From an uncultured Alphaproteobacteria bacterium (lineage in GTDB: Bacteria; Pseudomonadota; Alphaproteobacteria; Rs-D84), in the NCBI GenBank assembly GCA_944389385.1, contig CALXMC010000003.1, positions 10,356 to 74,355 of the forward strand: a stretch of DNA of 64,000 bases. Direction: 5' to 3'. Every line of letters starts with the position of its first letter. Within the stretch, counting starts at the first letter, position 1. Below the pieces are notes generated by a model, which worked only from the letters and a program-made list of their open reading frames with translations, was not told where the DNA came from and did not search any database. Of the stretch, positions 28,061-34,696 are shown piece by piece. Both the position numbers and the translations under genes were made by a program.

Positions 28061-28852
28061 TTATCTGACAAACGGATTGTATACATTTGTGTTACGTTGT
28101 AATTCTTCCAAATTCAGCGATATACACACGCGCAGCCTGTTAACACATTCCATCATTTCTTGTCTGTTATTTTTTTTCGATGCAGATGTGCATTTTTGGT
28201 GTGCTTCGCAATAAGGTGTGGAATATGTCGCAGTTTGTTCGTCGTATTCACATTCAACTTTTTCCAAACGGTCAAACATTCTTAACACGCCCATATCTGT
28301 TTCCAATTGGCGTTTTGCGGCACCAATATCGGCATCATTTATCGCGGTTGTAATTCTGTCCAGATTACGTGACAAACATTCCATAACGTCTTTGGTCAAT
28401 CCGGCATTTATGCAATTTTCTGCGCCAGTTACACCATTATTCCCCGTCAAAGACGATCCAGACGACGCGCGTTCAGACGATGATGCGCCCGCGGTTTCGA
28501 ATTTGGTGGTTAAAATTTCGCGTTCCAATTGCGTTTTTAATCGTTGAACAGTTGCTTCAAGATATTCGTACTGTTTATACATTTGTTGCATAATGACGGT
28601 GGATTTTAATGCAACCACATCGCGCATCAGTTGCCGATCAGATGCGTTTGTCGGATTTTCTGTAAGACCAAGATTGTACGCATGCGTGCTGCACAATGCC
28701 AACATCGGCACAATGCGGTTATTGTCATCTTTATCGCAACCGTTACTGACCGTTGCGGCCATGACGGGTGTGCCCACGCACATCACGCCCAACACAGCAC
28801 ATAACACGCACGAAATTTTTAACCTGTCAAAAATGCCACGTTTCAATTTCAT
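28061..28852 (-). CDS. Secreted cysteine-rich coiled-coil protein (P1), unknown function
   Basis: ATG at 28850-28852 (RBS AGGTGGA) overlaps the stop of the upstream gene (ATGA). Signal peptide MKLKRGIFDRLKISCVLCAVLGVMCVGTPVMA. Cys clusters flank a predicted coiled coil. Confidence 0.5.
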   Translation of the reverse strand: MKLKRGIFDRLKISCVLCAVLGVMCVGTPVMAATVSNGCDKDDNNRIVPMLALCSTHAYNLGLTENPTNASDRQLMRDVVALKSTVIMQQMYKQYEYLEATVQRLKTQLEREILTTKFETAGASSSERASSGSSLTGNNGVTGAENCINAGLTKDVMECLSRNLDRITTAINDADIGAAKRQLETDMGVLRMFDRLEKVECEYDEQTATYSTPYCEAHQKCTSASKKNNRQEMMECVNRLRVCISLNLEELQRNTNVYNPFVR

Positions 28853-32377: not shown

Positions 32378-34696
32378 TTAACCGCCTGTTTCTTCGCCCC
32401 CTGGAAGACTATCACAAATCTCTTCATCACCACCCATTATCCAGCAAATCCAGACATTTGCATTTTGTACAGTCGCGGATGCCGGTGGTGTTATGCCATT
32501 CACACTCATACACGTTTGAATCATTGGCAAACATGCACGAACCGCAATCTGATTGGCGTTCGAAACACTATCGACGCCGGCCGTCTGTCTGTCGATGTCA
32601 TAGTTATTCTGGGCCAAACATGTTGCGATATCGGTAATACATTGTTCGGCATAATCGGACAGAACCGTATCTTGGGCCGATTTAATTTGTACCAACGTAC
32701 GCATCAAATATTCACGAACAACCTGGTTATCGACTATGTATTTCTTGTTTTGACCCGAACCTTCGTATGTAAGATTCTGGCAACGATTCAGAACAGACAT
32801 ACACATACCATAATCTTTGCCCTCGTTATCGTCATGGTAACCAATCTTGTTCTGCAAGAAATCAGATAGATTCGTTGAATTTATCTTGCTGCTCATACTG
32901 GTGGTGGAATTCCACAAAGTATTGTCGACATAGTCCGACAATGTACCCTTGCAGACACCATTGGTCGATGTTCCTTCTTCATCCGTGTCTGTTGTTGGTG
33001 TATTCGGAACCCAGGCATTGCACAACGTGGTGTTATCTGCGCCTTTATATTGCCATACGGAATACAAAGCGCCTGCGTCTATTTCGTAATCACCATTTTC
33101 CTGTACTGCCCCGGGTTCGCCAGGCAGACTGCCAACAACAACTTCGCCATTAACGATGTATTTGCCGGTTGGATCCAGGCAATTTTCATAATCATCACCA
33201 CACACAAAATCGTCCTGCATACAGTCATCCAACGCGTTCACGCATCCACGTAAATCGTATTGGTTTTTCTGTTGCGCAACCATTAAACGTGCACGTTGCA
33301 ACACAGATTTTGCATTACGCACAGTTGACGACATTTGATCGTTTGCATCGGTCAAACTGCGTTCGTATGCGATACATGCTTTGTCAATTTCCAAATCGTA
33401 TGAATTGGTAATAAGCGCAGTATCCACACCCTGGGCGGCACAAGTATTTAACACCGCCGCCTTGCAACGCGAACTGGCGGTTTTGAACAAATCCGCACCA
33501 CGTTGGTTACTGATGCTGTTGCTGTTACCCATCAGCCCGCCAAAGAACGACGTTAAATCAAATCCAGTGCTGTCGATTGTGAAATCCAATAATCCCGATA
33601 AATCGAAACTTAATCCCGTCGAATTCGTTGTATCACCATTTTTAACATCAACAATCAAAGTTTTGATTGCATCCAAATCTTTTTTCAATTGGCTGCTGTC
33701 GGTGGTGGTTTGCATTTGTAATTCAGCCTCGGTCTGGGTGAACAGGGTTTCAACCTCGTCCGCGGACAAACCAATGTACTGAATTTGCAACGCGACATCC
33801 TGTAAAGCCTCGGTCGCTTGTTTTAATGCGGCCTCGGTCTCGGCATAATTGTCCAGATTCGCACTGCAACTGCAACGACCCTGGTTATCATCCAAAACGT
33901 TACAGAAATTATCCATACACGCAACATATTGAGATTTACAATAATCCGTCAACTGGGCCAGTTCGTCAATAGACATCGATGATGACGAAGATGTGGTCGT
34001 TTCAGACGTTGTCACAGACCCCGTCGTGACAGTGCCACTGCCAACACGAATTGTTGGAACACGCGTTGTAACATTGTTTGTACCAACACCAACACGACTG
34101 CTGATATACAATGGGGTGTTTACTGTATCCATTTGAACAATCGATGCACGCGCAGGATTTGTTTGTGTGCGTGTTGATTCACGCGTCGTTAAACCCGTTG
34201 TCTGGGCATTACCAACCGACGAACGAACATTCGATGTCGAACGATTTGATGTCGCATTTGATGCACCACGCGCAGCAGTTGCACTTGCACGGGACACTGG
34301 TTGTGTCGCCACACGCGACGCCGGACGCGTAACCACAGTTCGCGTAGAAACCGCACGCGCCGGATTTGCATCCACAACATTGCGCGACGATACACTGCGT
34401 GTCGATGAAGTTGCATTTGAATTTACCATCGCCCGTGATGCAGACACGCGACCACTGGCGTTACGGGGACTGGCCGTTGTTGGAACAACAGGCGCGACAG
34501 GTTTTGATTCTTGGGCCTGGGGCGCGTCGTCAGTTTCCGCCACAGATTCAGTTTCGACCGACCCCTGCACTTGTTCCATATCCGGCATTTGGTCGGCATA
34601 CTGCGCCATCAGTTCTTCGTAATAATACGCGGGCGCAATCTCGGCAAATGCGGGCAAAACCAACAATCCACTTAATACAGCAATCAGTCTTTTCAT
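32378..34696 (-). CDS. Secreted protein with Ser/Thr/Arg-rich disordered N-terminal region and cysteine-rich coiled-coil C-terminal region (P3), unknown function
   Basis: RBS AGAAGGGA. Signal peptide MKRLIAVLSGLLVLPAFA. About 200 aa of S/T/R/N low complexity. C-x6-C-x4-C motif (CKSQYVACMDNFC) followed by a coiled coil and further Cys clusters. Architecture parallels P2. Confidence 0.55.
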   Translation of the reverse strand: MKRLIAVLSGLLVLPAFAEIAPAYYYEELMAQYADQMPDMEQVQGSVETESVAETDDAPQAQESKPVAPVVPTTASPRNASGRVSASRAMVNSNATSSTRSVSSRNVVDANPARAVSTRTVVTRPASRVATQPVSRASATAARGASNATSNRSTSNVRSSVGNAQTTGLTTRESTRTQTNPARASIVQMDTVNTPLYISSRVGVGTNNVTTRVPTIRVGSGTVTTGSVTTSETTTSSSSSMSIDELAQLTDYCKSQYVACMDNFCNVLDDNQGRCSCSANLDNYAETEAALKQATEALQDVALQIQYIGLSADEVETLFTQTEAELQMQTTTDSSQLKKDLDAIKTLIVDVKNGDTTNSTGLSFDLSGLLDFTIDSTGFDLTSFFGGLMGNSNSISNQRGADLFKTASSRCKAAVLNTCAAQGVDTALITNSYDLEIDKACIAYERSLTDANDQMSSTVRNAKSVLQRARLMVAQQKNQYDLRGCVNALDDCMQDDFVCGDDYENCLDPTGKYIVNGEVVVGSLPGEPGAVQENGDYEIDAGALYSVWQYKGADNTTLCNAWVPNTPTTDTDEEGTSTNGVCKGTLSDYVDNTLWNSTTSMSSKINSTNLSDFLQNKIGYHDDNEGKDYGMCMSVLNRCQNLTYEGSGQNKKYIVDNQVVREYLMRTLVQIKSAQDTVLSDYAEQCITDIATCLAQNNYDIDRQTAGVDSVSNANQIAVRACLPMIQTCMSVNGITPPASATVQNANVWICWIMGGDEEICDSLPGGEETGG

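Follow-up and report, generated by a model that had tools for sequence, protein, structure and literature searches.

Here, we analyse four adjacent genes in a 64,000-nt stretch of chromosomal DNA from Candidatus Enterousia, a gut alphaproteobacterium of the order Rs-D84 with genomes of about 1 Mb. The whole stretch is called the window in the following, and all position numbers refer to it. One gene encodes a kinase-like protein (K), the other three encode cysteine-rich exported proteins (P1, P2 and P3). We find that K, P2 and P1 recur together in changing genomic contexts. P3 is an independent core gene of Enterousia outside this unit, its partner is a lipoprotein-like phospholipase D (PLD), and its position beside K-P2-P1 is a species-specific juxtaposition. 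As a whole, the reading we prefer, tentatively and at somewhat below an even chance, is that of a conserved K-P2-P1 unit and an independent P3/PLD pair which were placed next to each other in one species, together with the functions proposed for them further below. The gene structures, their linkage, the restriction of close homologues to this lineage, the conservation of catalytic residues in K and the transitive homology of K to kinase-like domains are established by the comparisons below. The main findings are the relocating K-P2-P1 unit and a deeply divergent family of probable leucine-rich repeat (LRR) kinases in an uncultured lineage with reduced genomes, together with a cysteine-rich secretome without known relatives.

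All four open reading frames (ORFs) are genuine genes. They are listed together with the PLD gene:

28061-28852, minus strand: P1, ORF of 263 aa
28849-30966, minus strand: P2, ORF of 705 aa
31089-32324, plus strand: K, ORF of 411 aa
32378-34696, minus strand: P3, ORF of 772 aa
34856-36469, plus strand: phospholipase-D-family gene (PLDc_2, Pfam 3.6e-34) with a lipobox-like N-terminus (..LPFMGC)

Genomic linkage and promoter architecture

K is transcribed divergently from P2-P1, and the same layout is found in nine other loci (L080, L082, L084-L087, L089-L091). All three genes occur together in 9 of 10 other loci, and P1 lies directly downstream of P2 in each of the 11 loci examined. The genes that flank the unit are of at least five kinds:

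Window: IHF and P3
L080: RlmN and rpsO, with rpsO beside K
L082: a P3 paralogue (36% identity) beside K
L084-L090: on one side a Cys-rich protein of 1040 aa together with RluD and three prepilin-like proteins, on the other side a Cys-rich protein of 470 aa
L091: L21 and L27 nearby

The initial annotation had regarded all four genes as one compact module. For a synteny test, all four proteins were compared by tblastn with 73 species-level loci of P3 relatives, including 10 kb on each side. A long P3 match was obtained in 63 of the 73 loci, and a phospholipase-D gene is adjacent in 51 of these 63; P3 and PLDc_2 thus represent a conserved divergent pair (loci L008-L069). P1, P2 and K are not found within 10 kb of the P3 orthologue in any of the 63 species loci. 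Homologues of P2 and K are nevertheless encoded at other places of these genomes, where K stands divergent to P2-P1. The four-gene module is therefore not confirmed: the part of the proposed synteny that holds is the recurrence of K-P2-P1 in nine loci, while P3 orthologues never co-localise with it. The position next to K is taken by the P3 paralogue in L082 and by the 1040-aa protein in other loci. Within the window species, the four genes are adjacent, and an identical P3 is carried by 17 gut-metagenome contigs. In a collection with one genome per species, P3 relatives occur only in metagenome-assembled genomes (MAGs) of Candidatus Enterousia or uncultured Alphaproteobacteria; one of these MAGs is a circular genome of 958 kb.

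At the PLD gene, a TTGACA-17-TATATT promoter ends at 34855 and abuts the annotated ATG at 34856. The true start is therefore perhaps the GTG at 34871; homologues align only from residue 8-9.

The following signals accompany the four genes:

30984-31012, minus strand: candidate P2-P1 promoter, TTTTCA-17-TAAAAT with an extended -10 TG (consensus scan)
31008-31024: conserved element of 16-17 nt, GAAAAGATAAAAA(A)TCA, between the divergent promoters
31053-31082, plus strand: K promoter, TTGACA-18-TACAAT, with 11 of 12 consensus matches the best in the region
32350-32379: bidirectional intrinsic terminator, A8-CGGGG-TAAATA-CCCCG-T6, common to the convergent genes K and P3
34723-34752, minus strand: candidate P3 promoter, TTTGCA-18-TAAAAT with TG (consensus scan only)

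The intergenic region between K and P2 measures 102-124 bp and carries a shared conserved element in all nine loci with K. This element of 16-17 nt, GAAAAGATAAAAATCA, is conserved in all loci including L088, the one locus in which K is missing; its core (GAAAGATAAAAATC) is present in 7 of 7 intergenic regions compared and is likewise retained in L088. It is a putative shared operator or UP-like element. The P2-P1 promoter is followed by a conserved AAGAGAGAAT immediately before the ATG of P2, and the start-adjacent sequence (ATTCTCTCTTG on the plus strand) is kept in six of seven aligned loci.

Only 6 nt separate the -10 hexamer of the K promoter from the ATG, and a Shine-Dalgarno (SD) sequence is absent; the initial annotation had likewise described a missing SD sequence and a promoter ending at the ATG. 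Other strong promoters in the window (those of fabH and of a gene starting at 17009) have leaders of 24-33 nt with an SD sequence. In all nine K loci, the SD sequence is absent and the distance from TTGACA to ATG is 28-32 nt. This conserved geometry gives comparative support to the earlier proposal of a leaderless transcript, and the mRNA of K is probably leaderless. K may not be the sole candidate of this type in the genome, since a promoter-like TTGACA-17-TAGATT site (38155-38188, minus strand) ends 4 nt before the ATG of a 166-aa ORF. A MraZ gene is called in this region on an identical contig.

The terminator between K and P3 had also been noted before and is supported by RNA folding: its hairpin has a free energy of -20.3 kcal/mol (z -4.6), and none of 200 shuffled sequences folds as well.

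The kinase-like protein K

Gene callers start K at 30975 and obtain 449 aa, while the alignment of homologues places the true ATG at 31089. The numbers of the invariant residues given here follow the 449-aa version. K has no signal peptide, in agreement with the initial annotation, and consists of a conserved helical domain (SCTRW..AGYKNPGAFPYSW) followed by a minimal protein-kinase-like domain of about 200 aa. The basic C-terminal tail (..FLKRRARIR) is conserved as ..FLKxxxRxR. We found 29 clusters of homologues with 34-53% identity, most of them about 590 aa long. In 9 of 11 aligned members, the additional length comprises about 180 aa of BspA-type LRRs at the N-terminus (PF13306, LRR_5; best E=3.1e-12), a domain which also gives profile matches in the PDB (4gt6, 4fs7) with E-values down to 5e-31. 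LRR_5 is absent from the K of the window, which retains the start codon and upstream sequence of its homologues despite the missing domain. This truncated form is intact in 126 member sequences, and variants without LRRs arose several times (P0254, P0255, P0257, P0263). At the same loci, K diverges faster (34-53% identity) than P2 (55-83%).

The kinase-like character, proposed earlier, stands on invariant catalytic residues and on a transitive profile link. Invariant in the family (11 homologues; alignment A6 with 15 sequences) are G253, G255 and F257 of a GxGxF loop, K274, E293, D357-x4-N362 and D370-x-G372. The spacing is canonical and resembles that of PKA from G-loop to K (21 residues), from K to E (19) and from D to N (5); E to D measures 64 residues and N to D 8. 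The HRD motif is replaced (..FMD/..L.D), and about 80 residues follow the DxG. No curated kinase family in Pfam or NCBIfam matches K or the C-terminal domain of its homologues, and no Pfam model reaches E<=5 on K. Likewise, the K family profile yields no kinase in the PDB; only the LRR domain of the homologues finds relatives there.

A profile of the C-terminal domain, searched against 1.8 billion representative sequences, retrieves 44 distant proteins with E-values from 5e-9 to 7e-4. Their consensus has the canonical kinase signature LGxGxxGxxYKI..LKxFH..E..DxxxxN..IIDFG, and hhalign connects them with the K family at E=3.6e-24. Among the 44, sub-threshold Pfam matches were obtained for FTA2 (7 of 44) and Pkinase (2 of 44), two families (PF13095 and PF00069) which we take to belong to one protein kinase-like Pfam clan. 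Against the PDB, the profile of the 44 finds almost only protein kinases, aligned at G-loop and lysine, at E>=0.03. An AlphaFold2 (AF2) model of K has an overall mean predicted local distance difference test (pLDDT) score of 69.6, and all of its 50 top Foldseek matches are kinase domains, at E>=0.01 and obtained with a low-confidence model of the core. Judged from these comparisons, the link from K to known kinases is transitive and weak, and K probably represents a divergent minimal protein-kinase-like domain that retains the catalytic residues. The 44 proteins themselves (P0286-P0329) are rich in K and N, vary in length from 144 to 1114 aa and carry a minimal kinase-like domain with the full consensus LGxGxxGxxYKI..LKxFH..HG..E..FAKFYFGK..DGF..T.F..D....N.I.GKIIDFG.

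Compared with the protein kinase superfamily, the C-terminal domain of K thus has a G-rich loop, the beta3 Lys, the alphaC Glu, D-x4-N and D-x-G in canonical spacing, whereas its G-loop reads GxGxFA/S instead of GxGxxG. The minimal bacterial effector kinases OspG and NleH offer a comparison in spirit: K resembles many effector kinases in a short C-lobe, in the lack of a signal peptide and in the fusion of its homologues to a protein-binding domain. Similarity to OspG, NleH, LegK or YpkA was not found, no direct comparison with them having been made. With BspA-type LRR proteins the homologues share the N-terminal LRR_5. Those proteins, however, are usually secreted or surface-anchored, while the homologues of K have no signal peptide and end in a kinase-like domain.

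Exported cysteine-rich proteins

The stop codon of P2 and the start codon of P1 overlap in an ATGA on the minus strand, as had been annotated, and the start of P1 is, as far as this arrangement indicates, translationally coupled to the stop of P2. An overlap or a gap of at most 8 nt is present in six of seven loci compared. This close junction suggests that P2 and P1 are co-translated as a complex. In its mature region, P1 has six invariant cysteines; its helical core (MRDVVALKSTVMMQQMYKQY..LKTQLEREILT) is conserved as well. The family alignment of P1 (A5) covers seven loci with 39-63% identity. P2 contains 26 cysteines in the mature region and is organised as follows:

C74-C91: cluster C-x6-C-x4-C-x4-C
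About residues 112-293: long Q/A-rich coiled coil
Residues 293-530: highly conserved central region
Residues 556-671: Cys-rich C-terminal domain

In P3, an S/T/R-rich N-terminal third of low complexity (about 40-240) precedes a helical body rich in Cys. Among the seven C-x6-C pairs of this body are those of C-x6-C-x4-C at 253 and of C-x6-C-x6-C-x6-C at 485-506. P2 and P3 each have more than 1200 clusters of homologues without a Pfam domain, those of P2 at 55-83% identity. The Sec-type signal peptides claimed for all three proteins were confirmed by eye and are conserved in the homologues (..VMA|AT, ..VIA|AP and ..AFA|EI for P1, P2 and P3, respectively).

P1, P2 and P3 have no match in Pfam, NCBIfam or the PDB, and searches of Pfam and NCBIfam return nothing on any of the four proteins even at E<=1. 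The families are thus undescribed, as had been stated. This also holds for the earlier exclusion of TraN, Sel1 and polymorphic membrane proteins (PMPs): none of these families comes up when P1, P2 and P3 are compared with Pfam at E<=1, and the PMP repeats of the window sit in a separate gene (38921-41605). Neither the P2 nor the P3 family profile has a relative in the PDB. Several library matches were rejected. Those of P2 to ZorA, LmuB, JetC, a tail fibre, ATG17 and TFIIA (scans of Pfam, NCBIfam, PADLOC and PHROGs) are all confined to the Q/A coiled coil at 105-290 and are therefore considered compositional. The match of P1 to phrog_17104 (E=3.3e-5) occurs in just one of seven family members, and P1 has no PADLOC match. 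Foldseek matches of the P2 model were coiled-coil noise only.

The initial annotation had emphasised a C-x6-C-x4-C motif in P2 and P3, followed by a long coiled-coil or low-complexity segment, and had suspected both proteins to be paralogues. The motif is indeed present once in each (C74 in P2, C253 in P3), forms the first cysteine cluster of either protein, is followed by helical or coiled-coil sequence and is invariant in both families. Shuffled sequences contain it in 3.4% (P2) and 1.6% (P3) of cases. The paralogy is not supported, as homology between P2 and P3 is not detectable by BLASTP (E=0.33) or by profile-profile comparison with hhalign (E=0.14). Both proteins have short motifs in common: besides C-x6-C-x4-C, these are [FY]G-x-C-x3-[IL]-x-RC and a helix followed by Y-x-x-x-GC. 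Profile-profile comparisons of P1 with P3, P1 with P2 and the 1040-aa family with P2 are non-significant, while the 1040-aa family and P3 share the C-x6-C-x6-C-x6-C module (hhalign E=1.6e-4). At most, the Enterousia secretome may be built from similar small cysteine-stapled helical units; that P2 and P3 descend from one ancestor cannot be demonstrated.

The recurrent C-x6-C spacing in predicted helices, with seven such pairs in P3 and three in P2, suggests disulfide-stapled helix pairs. In the model of P2, the helices 74-86 and 94-106 (pLDDT 65-74) carry C-x6-C. By analogy, this fixed spacing is reminiscent of twin-Cx9C (CHCH) hairpins; the likeness would be structural only, as the spacing is 6 versus 9 and the setting bacterial and exported.

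A further analogy is provided by the chlamydial envelope proteins OmcA and OmcB, which are cross-linked by disulfides, and by TraN from conjugation systems of the F type. P1, P2 and P3 resemble them in that they are exported via Sec, have numerous conserved cysteines and lack enzymatic motifs, and the reduced genome of the window also encodes a Protochlamydia-type Pom porin and a PMP-repeat protein. In contrast, sequence or profile similarity to these proteins is absent (neither TraN nor Chlam_OMP in Pfam at E<=1), and the long Q/A coiled coil and S/T/R-rich regions are not known from those families.

In the other species, the lineage-specific Cys-rich neighbours of the unit form a Cys-rich secretome island. 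Genes for secreted Cys-rich proteins around the unit were observed in L085 (11881-14991, 3637-4956 and 5178-5834) and in L082 (2786-4270 and 4861-5709). Their products fall into three sizes, with about 1040 aa and 38 Cys, 440-520 aa and 12-13 Cys, and 218-282 aa and 22-23 Cys. L084-L090 also encode, e.g., in L085 at 16077-20995, three proteins of 400-450 aa with prepilin-like N-termini (RG-ASM-x-E-VLLSMAIVA). A small secreted protein and a membrane protein with a zinc ribbon accompany this trio, and the whole group lies between dnaX and rluD. The prepilin-like neighbours have no significant Pfam match; N_methyl reaches only E=0.086.

Possible functions and genomic surroundings

In the reading that we prefer, P1, P2 and P3 would be exported via Sec and, because of their many conserved cysteines, presumably oxidised in the periplasm, where C-x6-C pairs may staple them as helical hairpins; they might act as structures of the envelope or in adhesion. 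P2 and P1 might assemble into a coiled-coil, disulfide-stabilised complex of the envelope or surface. K would be cytoplasmic, its window copy having lost the N-terminal LRR domain; in most species it could bind a target via the LRRs and phosphorylate it, either as an effector translocated by a VirB type IV secretion system (T4SS) or as an intracellular regulator. A translocated effector kinase is made plausible by the LRRs in most species, by the fast evolution, by the conserved basic C-terminal tail and by the VirB genes of the window. For the same reason, VirB8, VirB9 and VirB10 being encoded in the window, a secreted effector set with a host-targeted kinase, as suggested by the initial annotation, is conceivable. 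Taken further, K-P2-P1 could be an undescribed partner- or host-interaction module of Rs-D84 bacteria, in which P2-P1 form a surface fibre or adhesin of disulfide-stapled coiled coils and K belongs to a new and highly divergent family of VirB-delivered LRR-kinase effectors. The module would be relocated in the genome when Cys-rich paralogues, namely P3 with its paralogues and the 1040-aa family, recombine with each other. We regard this elaborated version as quite unlikely.

Several findings weigh against the preferred reading. L088 retains P2-P1 with an intact promoter side but has 1.1 kb of GC-rich repeats in place of K; because of this loss, K is dispensable for P2-P1 and the genes are not obligate partners. 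The third glycine of the K G-loop is replaced and not conserved, and the kinase core is modelled poorly (pLDDT 43-60 for residues 282-380). The same applies to the model of P2, which reaches a pLDDT of 47.6 with 38 homologues. For P1, P2 and P3, all statements on function are inferences. The virB genes are located more than 20 kb away. Furthermore, a disulfide-forming machinery was not firmly identified; the window offers only a sub-threshold exported glutaredoxin-like ORF.

The main competing explanation assumes that K is an intracellular kinase or pseudokinase which regulates expression, export or assembly of P2-P1 and is co-regulated with them via the shared divergent promoter region, instead of being a translocated effector. 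The divergent layout, the intergenic region of 102-124 bp and the shared element are in good agreement with this, as they persist in 9 of 9 K loci despite changing flanks. On the other hand, P2-P1 and their promoter side survive intact where K is deleted, DNA-binding, receiver and membrane domains are missing from K, BspA-type LRRs (PF13306) typically mediate protein binding in surface or effector proteins, and K evolves fast (34-53% identity) in comparison with P2 (55-83%). We consider it possible, on the unlikely side. Unlikely is also that the Cys-rich proteins are parts or substrates of a pilus-like or secretion apparatus (pseudopilins of a type II secretion system or type IV pilus, or TraN-like adhesins of VirB systems), with K being incidental. 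Its attraction lies in the commonest context, L084-L090, where the prepilin-like trio (G-ASM-x-E-VLL...), the zinc-ribbon membrane protein and Cys-rich secreted proteins are found and the N_methyl motif is matched weakly (E=0.086). However, these neighbours include no TraN, pilin, secretin or ATPase according to Pfam, their context is absent from the window, and virB8-10 are 20 kb off and not syntenic with the unit.

K might also be no kinase at all and owe its motifs to convergence, as a non-enzymatic scaffold or an unrelated fold, with a truncated and possibly decaying copy in the window. The low AF2 confidence in the core and the missing LRR domain would fit this assumption. Yet five catalytic positions are invariant in canonical spacing, profiles link K strongly to a family whose GxGxxG, K, E, DxxxxN and DFG motifs are those of textbook kinases, and all top Foldseek matches as well as nearly all PDB profile matches are kinases. 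Decay is at odds with an intact truncated form in 126 sequences and with the repeated emergence of LRR-less variants; altogether, this explanation appears quite improbable. Very improbable is the initial idea of one four-gene system, be it an effector set or an envelope-stress or redox-sensing unit with P2 and P3 as paralogous sensors. The adjacency in the window species (17 contigs) speaks for it, and so do the equal layout in L082 with a P3 paralogue (36% identity) and the 1040-aa Cys-rich protein, convergent with K in L084-L090, that shares a P3 module (E=1.6e-4). It is largely refuted by synteny, since 63 species loci have P3 orthologues without P1, P2 or K within 10 kb. Moreover, P2-P3 homology is not detectable and rpsO adjoins K in L080. 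The sensing variant, in particular, conflicts with a K protein that lacks sensor domain and transmembrane segment, and with the persistence of P2-P1 in L088 after the loss of K.

Enterousia (Rs-D84) are widespread in the gut; their genomes of less than 1 Mb lack the tricarboxylic acid cycle, respiration and standard transporters (PMC12306168), and these bacteria are thus presumably host- or microbe-dependent. The mobile, conserved K-P2-P1 unit and the many lineage-specific exported Cys-rich proteins are candidates for a role in this dependence. If K is indeed an active translocated kinase, it would represent a new family of effector kinases. Even otherwise, the first reading of this locus is corrected: the four genes do not make up a single system, P2 and P3 show no detectable paralogy, and P3 pairs with PLD.

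The window consists of chromosomal DNA. It includes rpoB/rpoC, plsX, fabH, an IHF/HU-type gene and yidC, and its GC content is uniform (0.44-0.47). An integrase or flanking repeats were not seen, and the tRNA-Arg at 26620 is not adjacent. A mobile element or horizontal transfer was rejected on these grounds. Genes for VirB8, VirB9/CagX and VirB10/TrbI are consecutive at 54952-59817. The VirB10 homologue (833 aa) is extended at the N-terminus by a long stretch rich in proline and glutamate, and its C-terminal tail is rich in Cys (..CEGGALPDANGCCPGETYTDMGEQGFNCCPDGGGDCF). Downstream of virB10, neither virB11 nor virD4 is found in the window, about 2 kb without long ORFs being present instead; virD4 was not seen anywhere in the window. 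The sequence in place of K in L088 (6905-8000, 1.1 kb) contains segments of about 90 bp that are duplicated. It matches in part a non-coding stretch downstream of the window virB10 (60351-60446) with 77-88% identity, which suggests a dispersed family in Enterousia that resembles repetitive extragenic palindromic (REP) sequences or miniature inverted-repeat transposable elements (MITEs).

Chlamydia-type outer membrane proteins are represented by a homologue of Pom (Protochlamydia outer membrane protein, PF17251) at 21485-22960. The PMP-repeat gene at 38921-41605 encodes a cysteine-free protein of 894 aa with Chlam_PMP repeats. The ORF at 13555-14202 (minus strand) encodes an exported thioredoxin-fold protein with a signal peptide followed by ..YYSPTC. 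Its Pfam match to Glutaredoxin scores 21.5 bits against a threshold of 22.9; it is possibly a periplasmic thiol-disulfide oxidoreductase and as such might be relevant to the folding of Cys-rich proteins. Finally, a small membrane protein (26151-26531, minus strand) with CC and CKCECEHCHDGHGHSH motifs and a weak MerC-like match (E=0.0015) adjoins the tRNA-Arg gene at 26620-26695.

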